Shown: positions 2,265 through 44,267 of the stretch, in pieces | Position numbering within the stretch: the stretch's first letter is position 1 | How the letters are laid out: each line of letters opens with the position of its first letter | Source of the DNA: Catajapyx aquilonaris | Taxonomy: Eukaryota | NCBI GenBank assembly: GCA_000934665.2 | Contig: KZ538182.1 | Location: forward strand, 62,001-106,832 | Direction: 5' to 3' | DNA: 44,832 nucleotides | The notes under the pieces: model-generated | Databases searched by the model: none | The model's input: only the letters and a program-made list of their open reading frames with translations | What the model was told of the DNA's origin: nothing | Made by a program: the position numbers and the translations under genes

Positions 2265-5022
2265 ATGTCGAGCCTGGTGGAGGACCCAGGGGCGGACACC
2301 TGGGAAGGGTTGGACCTGAACCGACTGGGGATCGACCAGGCGTATCTGAGGGTCGTCAACAAGGACCAGCAGCCCCTCTGGGTCTACGGACTATCCCAGG
2401 ATTGCTATCAGGTGGGCAGTACGTATAGCAGTATAAAGACCATGTCCACTGTGCTTATGCAGTACACACTGTAGTGTGACGAGTGCAAAGAAGCGTCAAC
2501 TGTACGTAATAATTGCGAGTGTCGTCAGAAGTCATGAAAGTCAATCGTCGTGACGAGTGTGTGACCGTGATGTACTTGGCCTAGAAAATAAAGAGTGTCA
2601 CACAGGCTAGGTATTGAACTTAACAAGCAAGGTGACAGAAATATATACACCCCCTAATTAAGGTTGGGTGTACCGTAAGGGCGAGAGTAATGACACTGTA
2701 ACGCATTACCTTGAACTGGTGTCCATGGAGCGGAACTTTGAGCCAAAGAAAGAGAAGAAGGTGGTGCAATTACACACTTGTTACGTGTCGCACACACAGC
2801 ACCGATGCATGCACCATATCAAATATTTCGCAGAAAGTCGCGAATAAATGCTCGTCCAAGGTCGTCGCTGGTGGAATTTTTTGACTAATTTTATCGTGCA
2901 ATAACATTGGGGGGTGGGAACCAGTGTCCTTTTCAGAGGCTGGAGGAAGATGGGGTTCTTCCAGGAGGCAACATCACCCTGGTGGTCAGCACCCAGAGGG
3001 ACATGACCCTGCGTCTCCGAACAAACTCCTCCGAATTCCTGGCCCCTGAAGACCCCTCACATGACCCGTAATAAGATTCGCAAAATTTAGCCACCCTCGC
3101 AGCCCTTTCATTGTCCTCCTCGTCACCTTGCAGGTGGTCCTTCTGCCAGGTGTGGGCTCCACTCGACGAATTTGGGGTGTACCAAGTGGAGGCCACAGGT
3201 CAGGACTTGTGCCACCTGCATCAGGTCAGGCAGCCAGTCAACATCTACTTTGGTACGTACAGAAATGAAATATGTTTCGGGAATAAATCAACTGGTTTGA
3301 TGCAGCCTTCCTGGTGTGCATCCTGGTGTACCTGGGCCTGGTCGTGGGCTGGAGGCTGGCCCGCGGGCTGCCCGGCCTTTGGACCCGGTGGAGGGGGAAC
3401 AGCGTTGACCTCCACTGCCAGCCCCGCACCCCACAGTCATCCAGTGACCAGCTGACAGGTGCTCCTCCGCCATCAGACAAGAAGCCCAAGAAGAGGCTCA
3501 AGTCACTCGACACCTTCAGGGGGTACGCATCGGCCACGTTGTTCGTTTGTTTGTCCAGCAGGATGCGGGATTTTGTCTCGTTATTCTTCTGTTAATTAAC
3601 ATTTTACAGGATGACCATCATCGTGATGATCTTCGTGAACGACGGCGCCGGAGACTTCTGGTTCATGAACCACTCCACGTGGAATGGCCTGCAAGTTGCA
3701 GACCTGGTGTTTCCATGGTCAGCGCGTGTTTGTTTGATTTAATAAGTACTTGTGTAAGAGACCACGTACCAACTTGTATTAATTTATTATCCTATAATAT
3801 AGGTTCATGTGGATAATGGGCGTTTGCATCCCCATCTCGATGAGGTCCATCCTGAGCAGGGGGACGCCTCGAGCCAAGATCATGCGCAAGATCCTCAAGA
3901 GATCGCTGACCCTCTTCGCGTTCGGCCTCTGCCTCAACTCCATCGACCACCTGAGTCTGGAGAAGCTCAGGATCATGGGCGTCCTGCAGAGGTTCGCCGT
4001 CACCTACTTGGCGCTGGCAACAATGGCCATGCTGCTCCAGAGGCCCGTCACCACACCGCAACCCACGCAGGTGAAGAGTCGTGCTGCTGATCATATCTAC
4101 TGATCATAGACGGCCATATAAGCAGACGGAGAGAACAAGGGGATTAGTAGTATTATTGTCTCCTCCTCTCCAAACAGAACAAGGCGGTGGTGATGCTGAG
4201 GGACGTCCTGGCTCTGGCTCCCCAGTGGGCCATCATGCTGGTGGTGCTGCTGGTGCACCAGATGATCGTCTTCTTCCTTCCAGTGCCTGGATGCCCAACG
4301 TGAGTTCACTTTTCTTCAGCAGATTGATGTGATTATTTGCATTAATTAAACCCATACATGGTAGGGGCTACCTGGGACCTGGTGGCATCCACTTGGGAGG
4401 GATGTACTGGAATTGCACTGGAGGTGCGACGGGTTACGTGGACAGGGTGGTGCTTGGGCTGGCCCACGTGTACCAGCATCCGACCACACAGCCGGTGTAC
4501 CTGACCGGTCCGTACGACCCCGAGGGACTGCTGGGGTGCCTGACCAGCGCCTTCCAGGTCTTCCTGGGAGTCCAGGCAGGAACCACTCTCCTCCACTTCC
4601 CGGGGGACGAGTGGCGGCCCAGGGTGCGACGGTGGGTCGCGTGGGGCGTCTTCTTGGGCGTCGTGGCAGCCGTCCTGTGCAAGTGCTCCGCTCAGGACGG
4701 ATGGGTGCCTCTGAACAAGAACATGTGGTCCTTGTCCTTCGTGCTGGCCACCAGCTGCATGGCCTTCCTCCTCCTCTCCTCCTTCTTCGTCCTGATAGAC
4801 GTCCTCTCCTGGTGGGACGGCACCCCCTTCTTCTACCCAGGGATGAACAGCATCCTCCTCTACATGGGACACGAGATCATGAGCGCCATGCTGCCATTCC
4901 ACTGGGCCATCTTCGCAATGAGGACGCACTCCATCAGGCTGGCAGAGAGTCTATGGGTCGCACTCTTGTGGGTCATCGCCTCAGTCTTCTTCTACAAGAA
5001 GGGAATCTTCCTCAAGGTCTAA
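2265..5022 (+). CDS. HGSNAT: Heparan-alpha-glucosaminide N-acetyltransferase, 8 coding exons (2265-2411, 2925-3067, 3134-3252, 3306-3522, 3610-3717, 3803-4070, 4178-4299, 4365-5022), ~593 aa
   Basis: All GT-AG junctions join in frame (1782 nt). Family motifs: luminal DQAYL...CYQ|CPFQ, RLKSLDTFRG, MIFVN, HSTWNGLQVADLVFPWF (catalytic His), LRIMGVLQRF, PGCPTGYLGPGG, NCTGGATGYVDR, YDPEGLLG, PLNKNMWSLSF, GMNSILLYMGHE. Confidence 0.96.
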
Positions 5023-23245: not shown

Positions 23246-23512
23246 TAGTTGGTTGTATAATGAGGAAGGGGGTCAGAGGCCAAGCCTCTTACAACAATCG
23301 CCTTATGATGACCACCTGCATATATGTGTCAATGCAGTTGCCCAATAAGGAATAAAGTGACAACATTGGGGGCTATATCTTGGGTGTTGTGAGACATTGC
23401 CCCAGTTAATACCGCATTGTTGTTGTTTACGACTTTCTTATTGCAAGGCAAGTATAGCAAACAAGTGGTTGGCAAATTGTTCAGTTGCAGCCCGGTGGGT
23501 GCTTCGGAGAAG

Positions 23513-24232
23513 ATGAGGGGAACGGCTGCTGCCAGCAGCCTCCTGGCGGCCCTGCTGCTGGGCACTGCCTCTGCGGCCACCCCTGACCGCCTGGCATCCC
23601 GGCCCTGCTTCCACAACCTGTCCTTGGGTGGGAGCGTGTACGACTTTGAGGAGCAGGACCTGGACGGGAAGGAGAACGTCACCCTCTCCGCATACCAAGG
23701 GAAGGTCCTCCTGGTGGTCAACGTGGCCACCTACTGAGGGTACACCTTCCAGTACCAAGACATGAACGCACTACAAGAGCAGTACAAGGACTTCCACGTG
23801 CTGGCCTTCCCCTGCAACCAATTCGGACTGGTACGCATCGCCATCCGCTTCTACAGTGCTGAAAACTAACATGTGTCATTATTGCAGCAAGAGCCTGGGG
23901 CAAATGCAGACGAGATCCGCAATGGGATCAGTCACGTCCGGCCTGGCAACGGGTTCAAGCCCAACTTCACCTTATTCCGCAAGGTGGACGTCAACGGGGA
24001 GAAGGAACACCCCCTGTTCGCATACCTGAAGGCGTACTGTCCGCCAACCAGGGATGGGTTCTCCAAGAAGGCAGGGCTGTACTACGAGCCACTGTCCTCC
24101 AACGACATCCGGTGGAACTGGGAGAAGTTCCTGATCACCAAAAAGGGTAAGCCGTACGCCCGGTACGATGGGTCCACCAAGCCCATGGAGATCAAGAAAG
24201 ACATCGAGACCCTACTCAACAATGACATCTAA
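23513..24232 (+). CDS. GPx: Selenocysteine-containing glutathione peroxidase (secreted, GPx3-like). Exons 23513-23830 and 23888-24232; TGA 23735-23737 = Sec; 220 aa
   Basis: Signal-peptide-like N-terminus, GKVLLVVNVATY-U-G, LAFPCNQFGL|QEPG, VRPGNGF, KVDVNG, DIRWNWEKFLI. The frame stays open after the TGA, the 57-nt phase-0 intron is GT-AG, and a SECIS lies in the 3' UTR. Confidence 0.95.
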
Positions 24233-24294
24233 TCTGTACCTATCCCGTATACGGCACTAGACAGGGTGGGTGGTATTGTCGGGAGGGATGGGAG

Positions 24295-24357
24295 CCAAAG
24301 GATGAAGACCTGGCCGGAAACCAAGTCAAAAATGGTGGGCCAGGTTGGAAAATTTGG
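24295..24357 (+). promoter_or_regulatory. SECIS element (type II) in the GPx 3' UTR
   Basis: CCAAA-GG-ATGAA-GACCTGGCC-GG-AAA-CCA-agtcaaaaa-TGG-TG-GGCCAGGTT-GGAA-AA-TTTGG: helix I, AUGA/GA core, 9-bp helix II, unpaired AAA 11 nt above the core, apical mini-helix. Confidence 0.9.
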
Positions 24358-24469
24358 GGGTAATCCTCTGGGCGGCAGTCTTGTGCGTTCATCTGTTGCC
24401 CAGCGGCAGCCCCCCGAGGCTCACCTCTCGACAATACCCTTCGTCCTGCCTGTGCAATGCATGTACTTT

Positions 24470-24475
24470 AATAAA
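24470..24475 (+). terminator. Polyadenylation signal of GPx
   Basis: AATAAA ~110 nt downstream of the SECIS. Confidence 0.65.
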
Positions 24476-25108: not shown

Positions 25109-26119
25109 TTAGAGCTGGCCGCTGTTGGCGACCACGATGCGCTTGCTGGTCTTCCCGCTCTGGCTCCCGTACGACTCGATCTTCTTCACCACGTCCATGC
25201 CCTCGACGATGGACCCAAACACCACGTGCTTGCCGTCCAGCCAGTTGGTCTTGATGGTGGTGATGAAGAACTGGGACCCGTTGGTGTTGGGGCCGGCGTT
25301 GGCCATGGACAGCATGCCAGGGCCGGTGTGCTTCAGGGTGAAGTTCTCGTCAGCGAACTTGGAGCCGTAGATGGACTTCCCGCCAGTGCCGTTGTGGTTG
25401 GTGAAGTCGCCGGCCTGGCACATGAAGTTGGGGATCACCCGGTGGAAGGTGGAGCCCTTGTAGCCGAAGCCCTTCTCCCCGGTGCACAGAGCACGGAAGT
25501 TCTCAGCCGTCTTGGGCACCACATCACTCCGCAGCTGTGGATCAAAAGGTGGCATTTAGTTGGGGGATTCCGCCGCCAGTGGATCACGGCGCCACCAGCG
25601 CTACACGATGAGGTTCGAACTAGGCCTAGCCTCACCCGCCCTGGGCTTGCCATGTAGGCTGTATGCATGGCCCCCACCCCGTGCCAAGTACCGGCCGGCA
25701 GAGCGAGGTAAGGTTCTGCAAATGGCGGCCATCCGCCCACCCCCCCCAGCCAACTAGTCCCCCCGGGGGCAGCAACTCACCTCGATGACGATCCGTCCCA
25801 GCTGCTCTCCATCGGCCGCCATGTCCAGGTAGCATCGCACCAGACCCATCTTGTCCGACAGGAATCGAATGAATCGGGACCAAACCTGAGTCGAGTTGTC
25901 CAAAAGGGAGAGGCTTCTTCTTCCAGGAGATCCTCGAACGCCGGCTTCTTCGAGAGGAGAAGGAGGGAAGGGGGAGGAGGAGGAGGAGGGAGGGGGAAAG
26001 TAGTCCCTCTTCCTCCCACCACCACAGATCCCTCCGCCAGACGCAACAGCCAATCGGGGGGAGGCCAAGCACCAGGCTGGCTGTAGCCCTCCGCACCACA
26101 ATCTAGTCGCGCAGTACAT
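25109..26119 (-). CDS. Cyclophilin-type peptidyl-prolyl cis-trans isomerase (Cyp1/CypD-like). Exons 26119(or 25849)-25781 and 25534-25109; 164 aa from the second ATG, 254 aa from the first
   Basis: [67 protein letters not shown]...[14 protein letters not shown]...[10 protein letters not shown]. Phase-0 intron gtgagt...ccacag. Minus-strand AATAAA at 24683-24688. Confidence 0.96.
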
Positions 26120-29420: not shown

Positions 29421-31251
29421 ATGGCGCAGTTTGGAGCGGCCACCAAGAACCCTCCATGGGCCAGGCCCACCAGTGAGTATGATGCTCCCAGCACACTTTT
29501 GTCTTGCAGAGGCTAATTTGCTCTCCTTTTTGTAGTGGGCCAGCCCATGGTGCAGGCTGGAGTGGTGACCATGGCTCCTCAGCCTGTAGCGCAGTTGGCA
29601 GCAGCGCCAATGCAGCTGGCTCCAAACAGTGGGGCGGCTGGAGGCGGTGTGGCGCAGCAGGGGATGGCTGTCACAGCACCAACCCAGGTGGTGCATCTCC
29701 AGCAGGCCCCGCAAGTGTATTCCCACTCGGCCCTTGGAGCTGCTTTGCACCAGCAACAGCAGCAAGGGGGACAGCAGCAAGTGTTTCCAGGCCCCTGCCT
29801 GGCGCTTCCAACGTCTCTGGCTGGCACATCCAATTCCCTGGTGACTTCCTCCATGCCACCCTCCATGGCTCCATCCATGGCTCCATCCATGGCCCCACCC
29901 ATGCCTATGCCTGGACTTGCCTCGCTGGCTCCACTCACAGGCGCAGGAACCTTGCCCACAGTCAGCTACCCTGCACCCAGGGCGTTGCAGCCAGCGCAGC
30001 AAATGCAAGTGGTACAGCAGATGCAGCCACAACAGATGCAACCTCAGCAGATGCAGCCTCAGCAGATGCAACCGCAGCAGATGCAGCCTCAGCAGGTGCC
30101 TGGAATTTCTCATCCTCTTAACCACATGAAAATGGTATTCAAATCATTCTGCGTTGTATTGAATGGACGTTTGACTCCATCCGCGGTTAGGATAACTTGT
30201 GACCACCCAGTTGCATAGCTTAGGTGGTTACCAGACACTGAATTGGATTTCAATTATGCAATAGGGAGAAACTGAGGTTCCGATTTTGATCGGACTTTAC
30301 TGAAGTAAAAATCATGGTGCTATGAGGCTAAATCAATCGTGCAGGGGGATCTGCTGTAGCTCGGGATATCTGAACCGCGCTTCAAACTTTGACAGTAACG
30401 TGGATCAGTAGACGTTGTCCGTTTGATTAGCTGAGATTGACATGGCCAGTTTCAATTTCACCATGGTGTTTCATAAAATAAACACTGGTGGGCATGAAGT
30501 TACTGCTTATGTCTGGGGAGTAATGCATAAGGAAATAATAACGAGACAGCATCTCATCACATAATTAATTGAAATCACCATAATTCCACTTGTTGGACAT
30601 GGGCAAGCAAATTTTCTGGTATCCCTGCCACCAGAATGTGGCACATGGGGAAATGAGATCCTTTTAAAATTGTACTGTTCTTATTCCTCAGTACATAGTG
30701 TTCAAACCAAAGTGTTGGCGACTTTTTGGCGTTAAGCTTGTCATTTCTAAGCAGTTACTTTTGCATAGTTACATTCAGTGGTTTTGATGCAGTCATATTA
30801 GCTGCTAACATGGGGTTGCATGGAGCCATCCTTTTTAAAGCATCATTCAGGAGACGTTGGCATGCAAAAATTGGTTTCATCACTGATGTTCAGGGCCAAT
30901 TGTTCCAGTTGGCTTCATACTAGCATGTAATACTTGGGTAACTGCTAAGAGAACTATTGGAGGCCTGAAGCAAACGAGGGGATTCAGGAGCGATAAGTTG
31001 CCCATGAATCCACTCGGAAAACCATGCTGCGCATGCGCCAAGAGCACGCCCAAATTTCTAACATGATTCAACCTGGGGGGCCAAGCAACTTCTCTCCTCC
31101 CGAATCCCCTCGTTTGCTGCAGGCCTAATAATATGCTACTTAAGGTTTTTTAAACTGTTAATGACAATGGGCAATTCAGTTGGTTGGTAGTAATAATTTA
31201 GTTTCATTTGCAGGTACAGGCACAGATGCAGGCACAAGCCCTGCACATGCA

Positions 31252-31282
<31 letters not shown>

Positions 31283-34200
31283 CAACAACAGCAACAGCAA
31301 CAGCAGCAGCAGCAGCAGCAAGCAAGCCAACAGCAGCAACAGCAGCAGCCCCCAAAGAACCGCGTGTTCACAGGCACAGTGACCAAGCTGCACGACAACT
31401 TTGGGTTTGTGGATGAGGACGTCTTCTTCCAGACCAGCTGTGTGAAGGGCAACATGGCCAAAGTGGGAGACAGGGTGCTTGTGGAGGCTGCCTACAATGC
31501 CAACATGCCCTTCAAGTGGAACGCCACCCGCATACAGGTCCTCCCCCAGCAGCAGCAGCAGCAGCAGGGCCAGCCTCAGCCGATCTCCACCACCCAGTCA
31601 TACACGCCCAACGTGCAGGTGCCCACCACCATGCGGTCAGGGGTCGCTGGCCCGCCTCCCCACCCCCTCCCTCCCCCACCAGCCCCACACCAGATGCCTC
31701 CCCACCCACACCACATCCAGCAACAGCAGCAACAGCAGCACCTTCCTCCTCCCCTCCTCCTGCCTCCGCACCCATCACAAGCCCAGCAGCTTCCCCCCAA
31801 CGTGGTGGCTGCAGCTGCGGCCGCTGCAGCCATGGCCCACTCCATGCAGCCCCCTCCCCCTCCCCCTCCCCCCCACCAGCAGCAGCATCCACACCCCCCA
31901 CACATGCATCCCCCCATGGGACACGTGCCGCCACCAGGGATGATGCCCAACCCTTCCCCACAGCCTCCACCACCCCCTCCGCAGCAGCAACAACATGCCC
32001 AACAGTTTGCTCAGCAGCAGCAGCAGCAGCAGCAGCCAGCATACAACGCTGTCCCTCCTCCTTCCAACCTCGGTGAGTCACCATGCCGCCAGAATGATTA
32101 GCATCAACTTTTAAGCTGCACTGATCTCCACGTCATAGTCTATAGGCTCTACGGAAAGTACTAATGCTGATTCTCCCAGTGAGGCTCATGGCTGACATAA
32201 AATTATCCTGTAACACGCCAAATTCAAAGTCCAGAAATGTTACATCAGTGTTTCATAGTCTTTCACTATTGGCCCAATGAGTGTCAAAAAATTCATGACC
32301 ATTCATTACAATTTAGGAAGTAAATAGCAAAATATAGAAATTGTGCCATTAAGTTAATTTCTGTTATCTATATCAAGGGTGGCTGCCACGTCATTGGGCT
32401 TTTGCTAATTACTTATGTTGTAATGCCTTGTTTTTCACCATAGTGCAGCTAAATGTTGCCAATAATTATTAGCTTCAACTCCAAAATGTTTTCATGGGTA
32501 ATTTTAGCGTATTGGAAGGAAAAGGGCAACGCTGAATGGAATCGGACACGAGTACAGGCAAGCGTAATCCGATCCTCAGTCTCTGTTTTTACCGTCTTAG
32601 CGCTGGACATTTAAAAATGGGCAACCTGTGCAATGTGTAGAACATGACCTGAGTCATGCATACAAATAGTTTTTCACTCCATGTATAAGCATTATTGCCT
32701 AGGAGAGCTAGATAATGGCATGAAAATCAACTTATTTTTTCCACTTTTTTGCATCAGCATTTTATAACTAAAGAACTGACTCAAAAACATCGATATTTGT
32801 CAGATGAATCTCATATTATACCGATTCCGACGAAGTGTCACTCATTAACATCGTGACTTGAACACACTAGATACAGCGATTTTTTCGGTATCCCGATTTT
32901 CGGGATAGCTGTAACGGAAGGGTTAAATAAAGTTACGTAATTTAATTTTACACTTTGCGTGGTGAGAATTACATGATTGAAACTGCAATGAAAATCCTGT
33001 GTACGTGTGTTGTTTCATCAGTCATTGCGCGTATTTTTGTATTCAAAAACGGTAACACATATGGAGATGACCTTTGCTGAGTTTTGCAGCTCTGGCGATT
33101 GCAATTTGATTTGGCATATGCACTACCGGTCAAAAGTTTAGCATCACCCCCAATCAGAGGTTTTTTATTTCTCAAGTCTAAACGTACAGTACAAATTGAA
33201 AGCGTGAGGCACCGTTGAAAGCGTTGTGAATAATGCTACAAACCATAAAAGGAACGGTCACTCTAGGTTCAACAGAGGCGCAGATATTACCTATTTTGTT
33301 TTTAAAAAATTCTCGAAAACCTACATTTTCAACTATAAATATTAATAAATAAAGGTAATCATCATGAATTCATGCTTTATGATTTTGATCTATGGCAATA
33401 AGTAAATGCCGACAAGACCTTGATGCCGGACACAAGGAAAATTACCACAAAAATGTAAAAAAATTATCACTCGAACGGGATTTTTTTTTAAATATGCGGC
33501 ATTTCGTCTTATATGCACCCGACAATTGACGTACCGTCAACAGCGCATAACTTGAGAACCTACAGAAATGAGGTTTGGACCAGCCGATTTGTTAAGGTTT
33601 TCCTAATCAGCTGGTCCAAACCTCATTTCTGTAGGAGTATTGGTTCTAAAGTTATGCGCTGTTGACAATACGTCAATTGTGCAAAAGAGCCATCATTTTG
33701 CCTTCACTTGGAACTCGATCGCATTGAGGGCAATGGTTTTTCCAGACGGTTTGTGGCGATGGCTGACACATGGCTCCGGTCATAGTGCTCTGACTTGTCC
33801 CACACTCGAAAGCAAGCTCCTGTGTTGTCCATCTTCGAGTGTCCAGCATACAGCGTCCAACAGCTCAAAGTGTGTCAGGCTTCAGGGCTCAGGATTCAAA
33901 ACTCAGCAACGTTCATCTCTGTATGTGTTACCGTTTTTGAATTAAAAAATATGCGCCATGATGTATGACTCAACCCACGTAGTTACAACCTCGTCACCCC
34001 GTGATTTGAAAATTTAAATTCTCGTGGCTTTTGTTATACAGTACAGCTTGAATGATAATGCGAGGTTACAGTACACTGCAGGAGGGGGTCACATTGCCAG
34101 GACACAATGGTGTATAATTTGCTGGCATCCAGTAGGATACCATTTATTTTGTTTGAACTCTTGACAATGTATCTTTCTTGATAATCTTTTTTGCGTAGCA

Positions 34201-37200
34201 CTATTTTATTCAAAAGCACTTTGTAAACATATTAAGATAAAGCGCCTCAGTATCGGCCCACCTGAGATGACACTCGAAGTTATCTGATTGGACCAGATGG
34301 GATGTCCTTTCCTCAAGGTTGAAGGCACCTTGATATTGCTTCTCCCAATCATACACCCAAACAAAGTGTGGGGAAAGAAAGAAAGGAGTGAGGCAAAATC
34401 ATGCCAATGGTAGGAGATCCATTTGGTGATTCATGCAATGTAACGCAACACTGCCAATTTTTGTGGATTTGTTCAGGCTGTTATTGCAGAAGTATTGCTT
34501 TTGCCCCCCTACGTACAGTTTGGGAATGGACATGACAGCTCTACCGACATAACTTGAGAATGCACAGTTCATGTAACATGTGTTTATTCTAATAATAAGC
34601 AACAGCAATTTACCAATGAGTAGTTCAAATACTTGCGTCATTTTGCACAGGTGAATTTGACAAAAAATAATGATATTGAAAGAAGGCAAGTGAAAATTCA
34701 GTGAACATACAGTGAAGCTTGTATTTTCTGCTCGCTACGTCAGGTGATTTCGTGAATACATTTAGTGAAGCTCATGGAGTCATGGGAGAATCCTAACTAG
34801 CAGAGGCAGAATATATTCGCACCATTTTTGGCAGGTTGTAGCGTCATTAAGCATTTATGATGATAAGGCCCTACTGATGTATGTAAAAATTAGGCATTTA
34901 TATGTTCTTGTTCCTCTATTCCCAGAACCGCAAGGAGGGTTCATGAGGGGTAGTGGTGGCCCAGGGTCGCTGGCACCTCAAGCCCCTCCTCCTCCACCGC
35001 AGTCCCAACAGCAGCAACAGAGGAGGTCTAGCCCACCAAGAGGAGCCCCCATTATTGTCAGCAATGGAGGGATCAGCAGTCGCGAGAGGGAGAGAAGGCG
35101 GGAGGAGAGGGCCAGGGAGCGGGAGAGGGAAGGGAGAGCAGAGCGGGATAGGGAGAGAGGAGGCGGTGGGGAGGCAGGGAAGGAGGTTGGCAGGGGAGGG
35201 GGAGGAGGTGGGGACGGAGGCGGCAGCGGAAGGGAGAGCAGGAGGAGAGATGCCGGGGGCAGCCCCCCGTCGTCCTCCGCTTCCGCAGCCTCATCCCGGA
35301 AGCGCAGCCGCAGCCCCAGAGCTAACGCAGGTGCTGGCCCTGGGAGTAGCGGCAGTGGCAGTGGCGGTGGGGGTGGGGGTGGGACCGCAGCCAGGGGAAG
35401 CAGCCGTTCTCCACCTCCCAGGCGGAGAGCCCGCCTGCAGCAACCCAGATACATTGTGCAGATCCCCAAGATATCACTTGACCTGTGAGTATCCACCAAA
35501 CCTAGTTTCACTCTACACAATTTATTGTGCTCGTTGGTTTTTTGTGTGGCTGTTCCATCGCAGCCCATTGTGTCCTTGTAAATATTGAGAATGTCTGCAT
35601 GGTTGGCCAACTCCTAGATTCAGACGGTCATCCCTTCCTTTCTGTGGCTTTCAGTCGTGAAGCGAACGTGGCTGAGCTTCGCCGCCGCTACTCCAATTTG
35701 TATGTCCCTTCAGACTTCTTTGCTGCCCGATTTGAGTGGACAGAGGCCTTCCCTGTTGGTTCCCCCTTCAAGCTGGACCAACCGACCTCACAGTTCCACA
35801 TCCTTTCTAAAGAGGAGTGTGCTTCCCCTCCCGACCCTTCCCTCTGGATGCACCCCCCACCTGAGACAGATCCTTCCACACCTCCTCCCACCAACCCCAC
35901 ACCTCTTCCACAGATGCTGGACCCACCAGATGCTGACTATTTATACTCAGCAAAGGTCAATTTTACTCCATGGTTCTGATGAGTCGAAAGTGCTGCGGCC
36001 AACCTGGTCAGTGTCACACTAACGTAACCCTGTCTCTTTAGGTGATGCTTCTGAGTGGTCCACCTAAACTGAATGACCTGTACCAGAGGTCATGTGCGAT
36101 GGCTCAGGACCCTGCTGAGGTCAGGGAGTCGTTTGTACACCCTGCTCGCCTGCTGAACTTCCTGGTTGGATTGCGGGGGAAGGGGGGGGAGGCCATGGCT
36201 CTTGGGGGCCCCTGGTCACCCTCGCTAGATGGAGAGGACCCCAAAAACGACCCCGGGGTCCTCATCAAGACTGCCATCAGGACCTGCCGCGCCCTCACTG
36301 GGATCGACCTCTCCAAGTGCACGCAGTGGTGAGTTTGAAGCAGTCCTTATTCTTTGGGGATGGGTTGGGGGCCATCACGTTTGACTACTAATGGCTTGGC
36401 ACAGTCCCTAACTCGTGGGAAGCTGAGTGAAGGAAGGGAAAAGAGTGCAAGCATCCACTGCAAAGAACCAATTGTGCAAAGAATAGCAGCTTCCAAAGTC
36501 AAAATCGACATGTAAAGAGCCTAGAAGTGGAACAGGGACATCACGTTTTTATCAATCTACTTCTCAAAAAGATAAGTTGCGGAAAATGTAAATAATGAAT
36601 CATTTGGTTATCTTTTGACCTTGCTTGTTTCCCATAAGACTACAATTATTTATGATGATGCCACATAATTTTTTTTTCTGCTGCATAGGAAATGTAAAAA
36701 TTACTTGTTGTGTCTATCACTACTTTATATTCATAGATGGAATTTTCGTCCCACTGCTAGTTACTACTGCTAACTTAGCAATACCAGTGTTGGCAGTAGC
36801 ACTGCTAAGTTAGCAGTGGATAGCAGTAACTAGCAGAAAATTCCACCCCATGTGTTCAAGTAAAGTAACAAGTGCTCATGATCTATTGGGATGAGAAGTT
36901 ATTTTCGATCAGGATTTCCTTCTTAGTGTCATGTTTTTATTTGGAGCAGTCTACACCGTGAGAACGAGCCAATGAACAATGTTTCAATACTTTTTTTTTT
37001 ATAGCACTAATAGTCTTTTCGCACTAGTGTCTTCAAGCTTTGCTACACATATTGGCATAATTCACTTCTTAGCCTTTTCCACCAATTGTTATTGTAAATT
37101 GTGCACAGCATTGGTCTAGCGCGCTTTGCATTTGATGCCTGCAACGTGTGATTAAGACTGAGCCCATGCTGCTGTTTGCTCTTCAGAGCTATTGTTGACG

Positions 37201-40200
37201 GTGTTCCTGGTTTGTTACGGTCTCGACTGGGTGAGTAGAAGTGTGTAGCAGCATGCAGGAGAGAGACTGCCTGGCAACACTGGAAGCAGGGGAAAGGGTT
37301 GAACCAGAGCATGCGATGGTTTTTGACAGCATGCCCCTTAGTGTTTAGGCGTGAGTGTGTGTGAGTGTGCAAACGTACAGCAGAGACAAGGAAGAGAGAA
37401 GCCTAGAGACGACAAAGGTTTGGTTTTTTTCTTTGTCTGCAGCAGTGGACCGGCAGTGCGGGTGGGTGTGTTTTGGTGCAGAGTTGGTGTGTGGGTGGAT
37501 TAACTAAATGCTTGGTTTCTGGCTCTTTCTCTCCGCCCATGCCAACCCTGATTTCCCCTGCCCTTTGACCCAACCTGACCCCATTAGGTACCGCTTCCTG
37601 GAGATTTACTACCGGAGGGACCGGGAGTCTGGGCGAGGAGGAGGTGACGCAGGGCAGAACCCCAAGGCTGCTCCGGCGGGCAGCAGCAGTGGCTCCGCGC
37701 GTGTTGAAACAGTGGTCCTCTTTCTCCCAGATATTTGGAGCTGTCTTCCAACCAGGGCTGAGTGGGAGGCGCTCCTGGCCCGCAGGCAGGCTGCTGCCGC
37801 CACCCCTGGGCCATCCCCCAACCCCAAACTTTGCAGTGGCCAGAAACCTGTTTCTACCCAATCCCAACCCACAGGTACTCAGCAGGCGGAGGAGTCAACC
37901 CCAACCCCTCCCGTCACTCCTGCCCCGACCCAACCACAGCGAGCCACCCGCAAGACAACCGCGCAGAAGCAGGCCTCCGAGGCAGAGTCGTCCCAGTCAG
38001 CAGTGCAGCAGACTGAAAAGGCAGCGCCTCTTTTCTCTCTCTCTTTCTCTTTCTCTCTCTCTCTGTCTTTTCTCTCTGTCTCTCTCTGCTTCTGTCTTTT
38101 CCTTCCTCCCCCGCCCCCCGCCCCCTCAAAATGCCCCCCCTCTTGTTTTTTCTCTTAGGCCAGCAGTACCCCCCACAGATCATAAAAAGGGGCAGGGTTG
38201 TTGGGTGCATTTTTAAAAATATGAGGAAATGCAAAAGGCAGGTCTGCTGAACTGTTTTGGTTTGGTTTTCTAGTGGCTGGGATGAGGCAGGCGGATGCAT
38301 CACCTTTTTTTATATATATTATACATTTATTGTCACTCGAGAGTGTATTGTTGTTTTTGCCTTCCCGGATTCTCTGGTTCAATATTGTAGGGTGATTTGC
38401 AGGGAGAGAGCCTTTTCTTCCCCACACTTTTTTGCATTGTTTATAATTTTTTATTTATTTATTGAACTGATTGCAAAAGCTGTGTGTCAGTCTGGGCTGT
38501 CCAATCTGAAGGTCGTCTCTGCCCTTTTCCAGAACGGACCTGCTGACACAGCTGAAGCCAGTGCTGAAGAAGTGACGACTCCGGTTACCAAGAGGGAGCC
38601 AACCCCATTCTCTGAACTGGACCCAAAATCGATGAAGGTTAGTCAATGAGTCAAGCACCGGAGAGCCATGCTTACTGGTGCCACATGTATAACAAACCCT
38701 GAGTGTGATTATCTGCGTGGCTTCCCTCACAACTGGCTTGTTTTTAGGTGAGTGAGCTGCGTGCAGAGTTGGAGGCTCGTGGCCTTAGCTGCAAGGGGCT
38801 CAAGTCGCAGTTGGTGGCAAGGCTTGGGAAGAGGCTGAGGAGCGAGGCCAACCAGAAGGAAGAGGAGGACGAAGAAGAGGGGATGGAGGAAGACGTGGTG
38901 GAACAGGTGGAAGGGGACGAGGAGGAGGAGGAGCCGGCGGCGGCAGGAGGAGAGGCGAAGGAAGCAGTGGAGGAAGAAGCACCAGCCCCAATGGAAGTCC
39001 TGGAGGAATTGCCCAACGCTGTTGAGCCCAAGAGTGAACCTGATGCTGCTGGTCCTTCTGCGGATCCCCAGCCAGCAGAGACCACCCCACCTCCCACGCC
39101 TGGACCGCAACCCAAGGAGGCTGCACCCCCTGTTCCAGCCCCAGTCCCGCTTCCCAGCTCCCTTCCCACCTCTTCACATGTGCTGGTCTACCCCTCCCGC
39201 TGGGCCAAGGGCGGCCGTTTTGACTGCACCCTTCTATCCCTGTCCCTGCTCCTGGATTATCGGCAGGAGGACAACAAGGAGCACTCTTTCGAGGTCTCTC
39301 TCTTTGCTGAGCTCTTCAACGAGATGCTTGTGAGGGATTTTGGGGTTGCCATCTACAGGGCGTTGGTCGCGTACACGCCAGATGCCACCAAGACTGATGA
39401 AGCCAAGACAAGCAAAAAGGAAAAGGAAGGGGAGGCCAAAGATGAGGAAAAGCAGCCCAAGGTTTGTCTCATTCTTGTGTTTTCTCGTGGCGTATGCTCA
39501 TTATCATGTGTTGCAGGTGAAGGAAGAGGAGGATGAGGAACGTAAGAAGAACAAGGTGGTGGCAGTGCCAACCACGATGCGGACTGTGCGTCCTGCTCTT
39601 CTGCTTGCATTTGTGTATTTCGACCAGTCTCATTGCGGGTACCTGCTGGACAAGGATGTGGAGGAGATCCTGTTCACCTTGGGTCTAAACCTGTCCAGGG
39701 CGCAGGCCCGTAGGCTGGTCCAGAAGGTGGCCTCCAGAGACGCCATCCATTACAGGAGGATCACCGACCAGGCAGTCCCAGTCGAGGGGGAGTCGGGAGA
39801 GGCGACGGAAGAAGGCGGGGTGGTGGTCAAAAAGGAAGAAGGGGAGGAGAATGTGTGTATGCAGGAAGAAGCGGAGGAGGAGGTGCCTGTGGAGGGCAAC
39901 AAAGGACTGATACCTCAGTTGGGGGTGGTCAAACGCGAACCACCACGAGAGGGTGGAGGGGAAGAAGGGAGTGAAGGAGACGTCGCTCCGGGAGTGGTCA
40001 GGTACCAGGGGTCTCTCCTGGACATTGGAAGCCTCTTGGGTCAGCTGAGGAGGAGTCAGAGGGACAGGGTTGCCACGCAAGAGAGGATACAGGCCCTCGC
40101 GCAGCAGTCAGGTCAGTCCGCTGCATTTTTGTAACGTGGCCTTTGAGCAGCAGCTGCAGGTAAAGGCTTGACCATCTGCATTTCTGTGCAGCTGCTGCTC

Positions 40201-41496
40201 TATTCTCCTTCCCAGAGCTGAGGTTGTGACAGAAAATGCATATATGAATGATGTGGCAATGGCCTTGAATTTAATTAGCCACATGTTACACTTGCTTGAC
40301 TAGAATGTGTTCCACGCCTGGGCTTGGATAGGCTTGGACACTCTCAGCCATTGTAGCAGCTATTGTCTGAAAATTAGGCCGTATAACTGCAGGTTTGGAT
40401 TTAATAATGGGCATAGTAATATGCAGAAATCCGCACCATGAAAAGTTGCATTCAATTCGGAACACCCTGTAGCATTTCTGCAGTAAGAGAGCATGAGAAA
40501 CAATCCTGCTGATAAGCGAAATTGGATTTGGTCACCTGATTGATTTCCCAAATGAATAGTCATCATCAGGGAGATAAAGCTGTCTGCCCTTATCTGCGTT
40601 TTTTCCGTAAGGGTTTTCCGTCACACATCTGGGACGCACTGCTCATTCTGTGGATTTACGAGGCTCATGATAATGCCAGGACGGCTGTACTTCCCATACA
40701 ATTACTCCACACTTGACGAGAACGTTATCAGATTGCACCTTATGACACTTGAGAAGTACACAGGAAGTTTCTCGAAAATTAATCTTTATTACGACATGTA
40801 ATTAGATCTTGGAAACAAGTATCATGCAACCTGACTTAAAAACACATCGATAGAGTGTGAATTTGACCGCAGCATTTTCATTTCTATTTCTTCGGACTAG
40901 GCAACTTGCTATTACCAATCGCACAAATTGTGCAACTGGATTTTCTGATGCGAACTGACCTCTGCTTATCGCCATATTATTGTCCTGTTATGTAACATTT
41001 GTTTTGGATACATTTTGGCCTTGATATTGGGTTTTGGGTAAACATTGTCGGACCATTTTCGCAAGGTCGTGTTCCTAGCTAATGACTGGACATATCGGGT
41101 CCAAAGAGTTTCCTGCTTTGATTACGCCATTTCCGTCCTGTTATCATAAGTGGATCCCACGCTAATGTGCGATTGCTTTGTCTTTTCCTTTCTCTAGAGA
41201 GCTGGCGTGAGCGAGCCGAGAGCGAGTCGGCCCAGGCAAAGCGATTGGGTGGGGAGGTCCGGAAGCTGAGCGGACGCCTACGTGATAGCCGCAAGGAGGC
41301 AGACAGGTGGAGGAAGGCGGCCAGCCAGAGGGCAGGCGCCATCAGGCAGGTGCAGCAGATAGTGGGGGAGTGCCTGTCGATTGAGGACAGTGTCATAGGT
41401 GAGCATGGACAGGACAGTGACACCCCAGTGGACGAGGAGGCCCACAACGGTGCAGAGGAGGCTCCGATGGACACTGATGCTGCTGCGGAGGGATGA
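29421..41496 (+). CDS. CCAR1: Cell division cycle and apoptosis regulator 1 (CCAR1/DBC1 family). 11 coding exons: 29421-29472, 29536-30134, 31214-32072, 34926-35484, 35655-35955, 36042-36328, 37588-~38020, 38533-38637, 38748-39461, 39517-40111, 41198-41496; ~1600 aa
   Basis: MAQFGAATKNPPWA N-terminus; S1-like RVFTGTVTKLHDNFGFVDEDVFFQ...PFKWNATRIQ; ELRRRYSNLYVPSDFF; DBC1/Nudix-like LGGPWSPSLDG...TGIDLSKCTQWYRFLEIYY; SAP MKVSELRAELEARGL..KGLKSQLVARL; DNKEHSFEVSLFAELFNEML; EF-hand-like LLLAFVYFDQSHCGYL. The donors of exons 2 and 7 are uncertain. Confidence 0.95.
30015..30095 (+). repeat. Coding 15-bp minisatellite encoding (QQMQP)x5 in CCAR1
   Basis: cagcagatgcagcct-like unit repeated five times. 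Confidence 0.9.
30961..31126. mobile_element. MITE with ~40-bp TIRs (AGGCCT termini) in a CCAR1 intron
   Basis: aggcctgaagcaaacgaggggattcaggagcgataagttgc ... gcaacttctctcctcccgaatcccctcgtttgctgcaggcct|aat. Confidence 0.75.
31228..31350 (+). repeat. CAG/CAA polyglutamine tract in CCAR1
   Basis: About 25 consecutive Gln plus a further Q run directly before the S1-like domain. Confidence 0.95.
33002..33981. mobile_element. Nested transposon remnants in a CCAR1 intron: outer ~85-bp inverted repeats, a Tc1-like end at 33121 and an internal foldback at 33522-33680
   Basis: 33002-33086 pairs with 33897-33981 (ttcaaaaacggtaacacata...tgctgagttttg). cactaccggtcaaaagttt at 33121 is a typical Tc1 TIR start. 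tacagaaatgaggtttggaccagc pairs with gctggtccaaacctcatttctgta. Confidence 0.75.
36738..36845. repeat. Intronic inverted repeat (small foldback/MITE)
   Basis: tggaattttc..ctgctagttact.actgctaacttagca pairs with tgctaagttagcagt..agtaactagcag.aaaattcca. Confidence 0.65.
38030..38092 (+). repeat. (CT)n-rich microsatellite at the start of a CCAR1 intron
   Basis: Imperfect tctctc run. Confidence 0.85.
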
Positions 41497-44267
41497 GTGG
41501 GGCCTCCTCTGCAAACCCTCGTGCCACTCTCTGGTGTCGTCACGACCTCCGATTAAAGTGCGTCTCCGACACAGTTGACCCCCCCGACCCCACCCAGCTG
41601 AGCTGGGCATGCATCCGGGCTGACCCGCAGTAAAATGGCTACCACTAACAATAAAAGCGTTGGCTGCAACGCCATGCAGATCCTTATCCTCCTCGGCCTT
41701 ATTTCTGTCCCGCCATTGTCCCTTCCCAGCTGGAAGCTCATTTGCATGCGTTGCATCACAGGGTTGCAGCAGATGTGCCCTTCGGACGCGGGAAGTGAGG
41801 AAGTCCCCTCCTTTTTTTATCTCTTCAAAAACTGGAATAACTAGAAAGATAAAACCCCCAAAGAGAATAAGGGATGGACGGGATGGTTGTTGTTGTTGCT
41901 GGATGTGGACAGATCGCGAAGGGGCAGTGGGTGACCTGACCCGAGGCGGCCGACCAAGTGTCTGCCGCAATAGGCTCTCTGGTTGCTTTTTCATTAGGGC
42001 TGCAGGGGTCAAGAGGCCCTCTGGAAATGTCATCAGGGACGGGGAGGTAGAGGTCATATCTGCTGATTTCTGGTGTAGTAACTCTTGACTGCATGCTGGT
42101 TGGAGTAGGAGGAGTTGAGGGAGCAAAGAGGGGCAGGGGCAGCCATTGTGGCGCCTGACCGAGTTGACCTTTGACCCTGGAGGGTGGCGACCTGCGCCCC
42201 GTCCTGCCCAGCCCCCCTATTGAAGCGCGTGCGGGCGGGGGGGCGCAAGCGCTTGGCCGTTAAAAGGCGCGCTGCTTTGACGACGCCCTCATTATCACCC
42301 GGGAGTCCGACGCCGTACGTCGCACCATACATCCGCCGCCGCCGTGGTGAAGTTTCATCGCCAGTATAGTTGCAGCCTACTCAACCAGTGACCACCAGTC
42401 AAGGACCTAGCAGGTACAAGCGCCTATACGGGTTCGTTGTTCACACGACAGTCGTCCCTGTCGATCGGTCGGTTGTATCCACCAGCGCAATGACCACAAC
42501 GACGTCAAGTGAGCATGTTGCGTCACTCGTTGTTGCGACAATGTTACGTGAGACAACGCATACACAATAAGCACATGTACAGCGAGATAACAATTTATTG
42601 AAGGGCTGAGATAGGGGATTACGATGGGGGGTGCTGACGTGTGTGCACGGTCCAGGCGCAGCAATGCTGCCGATAGGAATTTACAGCCGGCGGCGTGCGT
42701 CGTTGTTCACAATTTTACGATCTCGCTTTTTTATTATACTTCGCATTTGGCGGCTCACGTCGAAATGGCACGTATAGTACAGTACAGGTGCGCGCTTTGT
42801 AATGCTCGGTGAAAGCATTGCAATGCTGGAAAGACCGGCCTGGATTTGAAGGGAAAGGGGAAATACTGACGTAACTGACCGTTTCTTTCGTTATTTAGCT
42901 CGCATTCGCATATGCGGCGGAAATGAACGCATCTGTTCTGTTGGCAGCCCTGAGAGGGACGGGACAGAAGCTGCGCGTTAGGGAGTGCGCATTCGGTTGT
43001 TCTCTCGGGTGATGCCGATTGATGGGCGTAGCAGGTCCGTCCGCGACATTTCAACTGGAGACGTGCTCTATATAATAAAATTATAATATGATTGGCCGAT
43101 AGCGGTGCTGACCTGACCAAAAATCAACGGGTTCTAGATTGCCACATCGTAATTATTCATTAGCAGAGGGCAAAGAAGTGCGCCGCATGCAGATGTATAG
43201 GATGAAACACTGCCCTGAACCCGCGCACATACGAGCAATGGTTTTTACGCTACGCCATTTTCTTGCGTATAGTATATATGCCGCAAGTGGATTTATCAAC
43301 AGAGAGTGAGGCACTTTGTATAGAGTCGTGTGCGCATCTTGCCTGACGCCCAAAGGATCAAGCTGCTGGCGGGTTGTCCGAAAGAAGGTGCGACACTATA
43401 AAAAGGTGAATCTTTCAGACGCAAAGTATACTACCTGATGGCTTATCTGGCTTTCGATCTGACCCACTCACCAAAGATTCTACACGTACAGTGCTGCGGA
43501 ACACATATATTATACCAGTCAATGTTAGTTGCCAGCAGGTAACGGAGCAGCGCCGTCAATGCCGATAAAGAAACATTTATTAGGGACTGCTAATTATGAC
43601 CAGCACTGTACACCGGATGAACCCTGCTAGGCCTTGCCTGCTGCTGGGCATGATTAGCCTCATCTCTGTTTGCATGCAAGCACATTCTTGATTAATTATT
43701 ATTGTATCCCCGCCTGAAGTGAAAGAGGGAGTCACAGACGCTCGTTTCCTCCGCCACGGTGTTGCCCGACAGCACCTCCGCTATAGGATGAACGTGACTT
43801 GGCAAGTGGAGCACGTGCTGCGGTCAGGCGCACACATCACCTTGCAGGATGTGTCGCCACCAGCACCATGACGTGTATACAGTACCGCGAATGATATTCG
43901 GTGGTGTCACATATATATTCCGCAGATATTACTCGTCTTCTCTGACCATGCCAGCACGACCAGCAAGTTGACCGATAAGCAATCGAGGCAGCGTTTGTTT
44001 CCTCTTCCACCCCACCCACCCACCCACCCACCCACCCTGACACACAGATATCCGGACCACAGGATATACTTGTGCACACGGAGACGTGTTGGGAGTCCTG
44101 GACACACCCCGCAGTCGCGTGTGCGGATGAGAGGTCGTGGCGCCATTGACCAACGGATGGGTGGGTGGCAAGAGTGGAGGATTGACATGTTGTGCTTGGG
44201 TGGCTGGCAAGAAGGTCTCGAGATGATGAACTAAACAAGGTGTATTTCAAATATACAATAAGCTTGA

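Follow-up and report, generated by a model that had tools for sequence, protein, structure and literature searches.

Dias et al. (2016; doi 10.1016/j.ibmb.2015.08.007) reportedly described a selenium-dependent GPx in Rhodnius prolixus, and this enzyme is said to have a signal peptide and to account for activity in the haemolymph. In passages of PMC5100079, in which the Rhodnius work is cited, arthropod GPx homologues group in one clade with the GPx3 of mammals, and the open reading frames called on Sec-GPx3-like transcripts of Paratya australiensis are truncated at the UGA, which is the same artefact as that described in the earlier note for the locus treated here. According to passages of PMC8872551, CqGPx3a/b of the crayfish Cherax quadricarinatus have a predicted signal peptide, a UGA-encoded selenocysteine (Sec), a type 2 SECIS and an AAUAAA signal, as well as N-glycosylation sites and the PCNQF, VNG and WNxEKF motifs, and our gene resembles them in these sequence features. 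Sec is described as widespread in animal GPx1-6 in a part of PMC9925728, and a part of PMC4244043 reports a Sec-GPx in a centipede and Cys forms only in holometabolous insects. For Hexapoda, passages of PMC8614756 report only Cys-GPx4, and insects are said to lack a selenium GPx in passages of PMC11508645 and PMC6136372. Literature searches listed no paper on a dipluran GPx; this gene or an orthologue of it may appear in the supplements of PMC4561486 and PMC4244043, and the main text of PMC4561486 mentions neither 'GPx' nor 'Diplura'. Passages of PMC5778769 and of bioRxiv 10.1101/2025.10.02.680026 offered nothing on the subject.

The window, i.e., the whole 44.8-kb stretch of contig KZ538182.1 of Catajapyx aquilonaris that was analysed, carries on its + strand a Sec-GPx gene of two exons and 220 residues. 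Its features are the following:

23513..23830, + strand: coding exon 1, residues 1-106, which includes the putative Sec codon; Pfam GSHPx positions 1-65 are matched at 76.8 bits
23513..23575, + strand: predicted signal peptide, about residues 1-21, from hydropathy
23735..23737, + strand: in-frame TGA, codon 75, putative selenocysteine, aligned with the catalytic Cys of solved GPx5/GPx6
23831..23887, + strand: phase-0 GT-AG intron of 57 nt; relatives are contiguous at the splice point
23888..24232, + strand: coding exon 2, residues 107-220 and the stop codon TAA (24230-24232); it contains Q107, W182 and N183
23939..23956, + strand: RPGNGF, a variant of the PGGG subunit-interface motif, which aligns to RPGGG[FY] of GPx1, 3 and 6
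24038..24130, + strand: CPPT...WNWEKF segment, which contains the long loop typical of tetrameric GPx and is gap-free against GPx3/GPx6
24292..24361, + strand: type II SECIS with its core at 24302-24350, from pattern, Rfam, fold and shuffles
24470..24475, + strand: AATAAA, likely polyadenylation signal, 109 nt past the SECIS

The start codon ATG is located at 23513, and the stop-to-stop frame of 23393-23737 has no further in-frame ATG upstream of it. The earlier note had claimed that the open reading frame breaks at the catalytic position of a GPx and that splicing rejoins the split frame, and both points were confirmed. NVATY precedes the TGA at 23735, whose codon 75 aligns with the catalytic Cys of GPx5/GPx6, and the frame goes on as GYTFQY...FPCNQFGL up to the GT donor at 23831; the intron ends with TTATTGCAG at 23887, and exon 2 is translated as QEPG...VRPGNGF...WNWEKF until its TAA, all coordinates being right. 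Retention of the intron would introduce an in-frame TAA. The exon 2 match to Pfam GSHPx (PF00255) covers positions 67-108 of the family at 37.3 bits and joins that of exon 1 at the splice point, and both scores are above the curated cut-off of 27 bits. Third-position GC was 0.85 in the codons that precede the TGA, and it was 0.81 both in the rest of exon 1 and in exon 2, as compared to about 0.50 for overall GC in the surrounding kilobases; the frame therefore has the look of coding sequence before as well as after the TGA. Alignments to solved GPx chains gave a complete catalytic tetrad, U75-Q107-W182-N183, with the tetrad of U/C, Q, W and N taken as defined in a passage of PMC9925728. Searches of the genome turned up a single GPx3-like gene.

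The SECIS core starts 70 nt past the stop codon. It is composed of ATGAA at 24302, a helix II with 9/9 positions paired, GG-AAA (AAA at 24318), an apical mini-stem and GGAA ending at 24350, and a lower helix encloses this core. The complete SECIS that had been proposed for the 3' UTR is thus present in every element, though its full-length match to Rfam SECIS_1 (28.4 bits, E 0.001) is below the gathering score of 35 bits, and an Rfam scan of the whole window at the gathering level gave no match. The pattern occurred only once in the window when both strands were searched. Of 5000 dinucleotide-shuffled versions of the 263-nt UTR, 3 contained it, and the fold had a z of -2.6. No significant recoding hairpin was found after UGA 75, where a 5-bp hairpin gave z values of -0.07 and -0.72 against shuffles.

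A scan of metagenomes for related loci yielded eight, six of which have no intron and cover the catalytic site; L041, without the catalytic region, and L042, a distant one at 33%, were left out of the count that follows. TGA was found at the catalytic codon in all six intron-less relatives (6/6), and all of them run uninterrupted across the splice point of the window gene, so that these transcript-like contigs support the splice. Rfam SECIS_1 matched four of the seven relative loci scanned, with E from 0.0085 to 0.12 and all scores below the gathering score, and the SECIS of L036 was additionally recovered by the pattern search; two of the six TGA-bearing relatives, L038 and L039, gave no convincing SECIS in the pattern search. 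When helix II of five relatives is compared with that of the window gene, both partners of the pair depart from the window sequence in 18 of 45 cells. Pairing in this helix is kept in 52/54 cases against 16-29/54 when the 3' arm is slid, a contrast which is inflated, partly by construction, because the elements of the relatives were chosen by their pairing pattern. In a set of 127 homologue records, the residue at the catalytic position is W in 41 cases, C in 27, G in 2 and S in 1, and 56 records lack the motif. The nearest homologues show W at the Sec site, and for one of these, P0004, the W corresponds to TGA at the locus L036. The models of Blattella, Diploptera, Ladona and Penaeus resume at the same QEP that opens exon 2, and this restart in four arthropod records supports a conserved intron.

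The host is a wingless, soil-dwelling hexapod. A COX1 fragment of its genome is 97% identical to Japyx solifugus, with the other records listed reaching at most 88%, and this puts the host in the japygid Diplura, which are hexapods but not insects; the fragment is on a short contig and may be a nuclear copy, which would still indicate the same family. Since the host is a japygid dipluran and not a holometabolous insect, it is expected to have kept Sec. The genome carries a tRNA-Sec (80.6 bits, TCA anticodon), SepSecS (E 5e-87), eEFSec (E 4e-37), PSTK (157.8 bits) and an SPS with an in-frame TGA within the KG-x-GCKVP motif, the PSTK and SPS matches being exon pieces below the whole-protein cut-offs. 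An SBP2 exon was missed by the first L7Ae search, which gave eight matches, and emerged only at a loose threshold, after which it was matched to human SBP2 in the PDB (E 5e-15). The Sec machinery on which the earlier note had made its reading depend is present, and on these sequence grounds the TGA at 23735 is almost certainly the Sec codon of a genuine Sec-GPx gene. Some neighbours and look-alikes of these genes were also recorded. A Cys GPx (L004, G000:C537:50714-50983, + strand), which we take from its motifs to be GPx7/8-like, and the SPS gene with its TGA (L022-L025, C537:52831-54318, - strand) lie tail to tail, less than 2 kb apart. A second selD-family match of 64 bits (L023, G000:C6631:8778-9128, - strand) is a paralogue, a second haplotype or an AIRS-fold relative. 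Two genes with L7Ae domains that resemble each other and lie on separate contigs (L020, G000:C506; L021, G000:C577) are presumably RPP38-like, judging from their motifs.

Scores against solved structures favour GPx3, GPx5 and GPx6 over GPx1/2, by a clear margin for exon 1 and a narrow one for exon 2. Exon 1 scored 57.7-65.0 bits against GPx3/5/6, 38.8-41.5 against GPx1/2 and at most 39.8 against GPx4, and exon 2 scored 97.8 against GPx6, 96.9 against GPx3, 93.8 against bovine GPx1, a value near that of GPx3, and at most 39.8 against GPx4. The cysteine of CPPT is common to GPx3 and GPx6 and is absent in bovine GPx1. The 23-residue spacer of the CPPT...WNWEKF segment is also found in 99 of the 127 homologues; of the 127, 31 have RPGNGF and 34 RPGGGF. 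A tree was built from 49 rows with no GPx1/2 among them: 45 of the 127 homologues, of which 32 are named and 13 unnamed, together with the window protein and three partial outgroup rows. In this tree the window protein is set apart from GPx4/7 at 100/100, including the GPx4-like rows of its own genome, and joins proteins of malacostracan crustaceans in a group with 98/96 support; its grouping with crustaceans rather than insects may reflect paralogy. The vertebrate GPx3/5/6 make up a separate clade at 100/100, and the window gene is therefore at best a co-orthologue of GPx3/5/6. Identity with GPx4/PHGPx was also considered, and it is ruled out by the presence of the subunit loop and by the 100/100 split from the GPx4-like rows. 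The structure predicted for the relative P0004, which is 62% identical and has W at the Sec site, supports the fold only; the best solved matches of this model are again GPx3/5/6, and its long loop has a pLDDT below 50 at residues 160-175. A classical, GPx3/5/6-like Sec-GPx is supported as the best reading of these comparisons.

At the N-terminus, hydropathy peaks at 2.39 (9-residue mean) over residues 10-18 and is followed by small residues, a profile that fits a signal peptide. The protein has three N-glycosylation sequons, N35, N55 and N132, and its C-terminus, ...LLNNDI, is without a hydrophobic tail or retention signal. The predicted protein is very probably secreted, and it is likely to be a tetramer. 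The earlier note had called it a secreted, tetrameric-type Sec-GPx, of which the Sec-GPx and its classical type are upheld, while 'secreted' and 'tetrameric' are predictions drawn from features of the sequence.

The locus is thus very likely a functional gene of two exons that encodes a secreted Sec-GPx of the arthropod GPx3-like group and has been vertically inherited in a japygid dipluran. SBP2 would bind the SECIS of the spliced mRNA, and eEFSec would bring Sec-tRNA to UGA 75. The signal peptide would lead the protein into the ER, from which it would be secreted, probably into the haemolymph and probably as a tetramer. The selenolate would then reduce H2O2 or soluble hydroperoxides and would be regenerated by two thiols, most likely those of glutathione. 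Under selenium shortage, termination at the UGA would leave an inactive peptide of 74 residues.

The gene could also encode a Sec-GPx that is not a free, secreted and glutathione-using tetramer, i.e., one that stays within the secretory pathway or is surface-bound, is a dimer or a monomer, or is regenerated mainly by thioredoxin or another extracellular thiol. Extracellular glutathione is low, which counts for a reductant other than glutathione, the signal peptide is backed by hydropathy only, the interface motif is PGNG and not PGGG, the model of P0004 has low confidence in the long loop, and some relatives (P0016, L039) have hydrophobic C-terminal tails. We consider this unlikely, however, as the window protein itself ends with neither such a tail nor a retention signal, its loop is of the same length as those of GPx3 and GPx6, and signal peptides are predicted for the GPx3 cDNAs of the crayfish according to a passage of PMC8872551.

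It is very improbable that the TGA arose in a Cys-GPx, by nonsense mutation or through an error of assembly, which would make the locus a pseudogene or the gene of an ordinary cysteine enzyme. C occupies the catalytic position in 27 of the 127 records, including one named insect (Clastoptera), but the window gene has a complete SECIS 70 nt past its stop which is unique in the window, TGA recurs in 6/6 relatives and stands behind the W of P0004, one of the nearest homologues, and the gene, of which no second copy turned up in the genome, has no other lesion and a uniform codon bias. Readthrough of the UGA might instead insert one of the ordinary amino acids and give a non-selenium protein, as proposed for the SECIS-less insect SPS1-UGA. 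Passages of PMC4561486 describe how, in insects, a codon that once specified Sec is read through without Sec, and the TGA at 23735 is followed by GGG and the 5-bp hairpin; yet the SPS1-UGA genes are without a SECIS, whereas the window gene has one and its genome has the full machinery, the GGG is a conserved Gly codon, and the hairpin is no better than those of shuffles, so that readthrough of this kind is hardly credible here.

The earlier note had expected automated annotation to truncate such genes or to call them pseudogenes, and damage by annotation was borne out in relatives: the start of 41 of the 127 homologue records lies downstream of residue 60, and the catalytic stretch is missing from 13 of the 16 named arthropod records, the other 3 having C. 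Among the nine named insect records, eight lack this stretch by exon skipping or late start (P0006, P0010, P0011, P0013, P0061, P0075, P0079 and P0114, from cockroaches, termites, a stick insect, odonates and a louse), and the Clastoptera record P0024 has Cys at the catalytic position. The public insect records of the GPx3-like family are thus mostly mis-modelled around the UGA. These sequence records suggest that the distribution of Sec-GPx3 in insects is wider and is hidden by annotation. It appears fairly likely, from this gene together with the two TGA-bearing GPx4-like genes of the genome, that early hexapods retained Sec in both GPx classes and that the secreted Sec-GPx3 is widespread, and unannotated, in non-holometabolous hexapods; it would then survive in dragonflies, cockroaches, termites, stick insects and lice, with a putative TGA in these insect genes. 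If this is true, the statements in passages of PMC8614756 that hexapods have only Cys-GPx4, and in passages of PMC11508645 and PMC6136372 that insects have no selenium GPx, are annotation or sampling artefacts, and the loss of Sec-GPx3 maps to later insect lineages. The mis-modelling of public records around the UGA may be the reason why reviews deny a selenium GPx in insects. The contrast that the earlier note had drawn with the Cys-GPx of holometabolous insects, for which only Cys forms are reported (PMC4244043, in part), is no surprise, the host being a dipluran and Sec-GPx being described from crustaceans, a centipede and a true bug.

Several other genes were found in the window and elsewhere in the genome. 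A two-exon cyclophilin gene (25109-25851, - strand; Pro_isomerase, 156 bits) is convergent with the GPx gene, and its stop lies about 640 nt past the AATAAA of the latter. At about 29500-41500 on the + strand, the window has a multi-exon gene with S1-like, SAP and LAIKA domains and long polyQ and polyP runs, an architecture which we take to be that of CCAR1. Membrane-protein exons at 3798-5022 on the + strand have a weak DUF418 match and presumably resemble HGSNAT. COX1 matches in several frames or with stops (L026/L028 on G000:C5905, and G000:C822:18908-19018) are likely nuclear copies of mitochondrial DNA. Two tandem GPx4-like genes, L002 and L003 (G000:C3307, about 17.6-22.6 kb, - strand), both have TGA at the catalytic codon and carry a near-identical SECIS-like hairpin shortly past the stop with 7/9 helix pairs; Rfam, at E up to 1, found no SECIS in L002-L004. 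As apparent Sec-GPx4 genes in a hexapod, L002 and L003 would contradict the account in passages of PMC8614756, and this pair may be more notable than the window gene.

By itself the window gene matters little, as the correct rescue of a gene broken by standard gene callers. It does provide a dated point for the loss of selenoproteins in hexapods, as in a dipluran a Sec-GPx3 of the secreted type persists, and apparently a Sec-GPx4 as well. Enzymes of this kind had been described before in crayfish, shrimp, a blood-sucking bug and mammals, and the dipluran one is a new member from a lineage where it is expected. Rhodnius prolixus likewise provides a hexapod selenium GPx, but it is a true insect and not a dipluran. 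Paratya australiensis has several GPx3-like paralogues according to passages of PMC5100079, as compared to the one found in the Catajapyx genome. In the crayfish, CqGPx3a/b carry C-terminal extensions of 36-42 residues (PMC8872551, in part), whereas the window protein ends directly after the fold; a Cherax record (P0048) falls in the same 98/96 tree group. The insect Cys-GPx4/PHGPx enzymes, which are thioredoxin-dependent, have the GSHPx domain in common with the window protein, but they are monomeric, Cys-based and without the PGGG motif and the subunit loop, as described in a part of PMC2679728. The best solved matches are mammalian GPx3, GPx5 and GPx6 (PDB 2r37, 2i3y and 7fc2), with which the window protein shares the tetrad, the interface motif, the loop length and the CPPT cysteine; GPx5 and rodent GPx6 use Cys at the catalytic position, whereas the dipluran gene has TGA.
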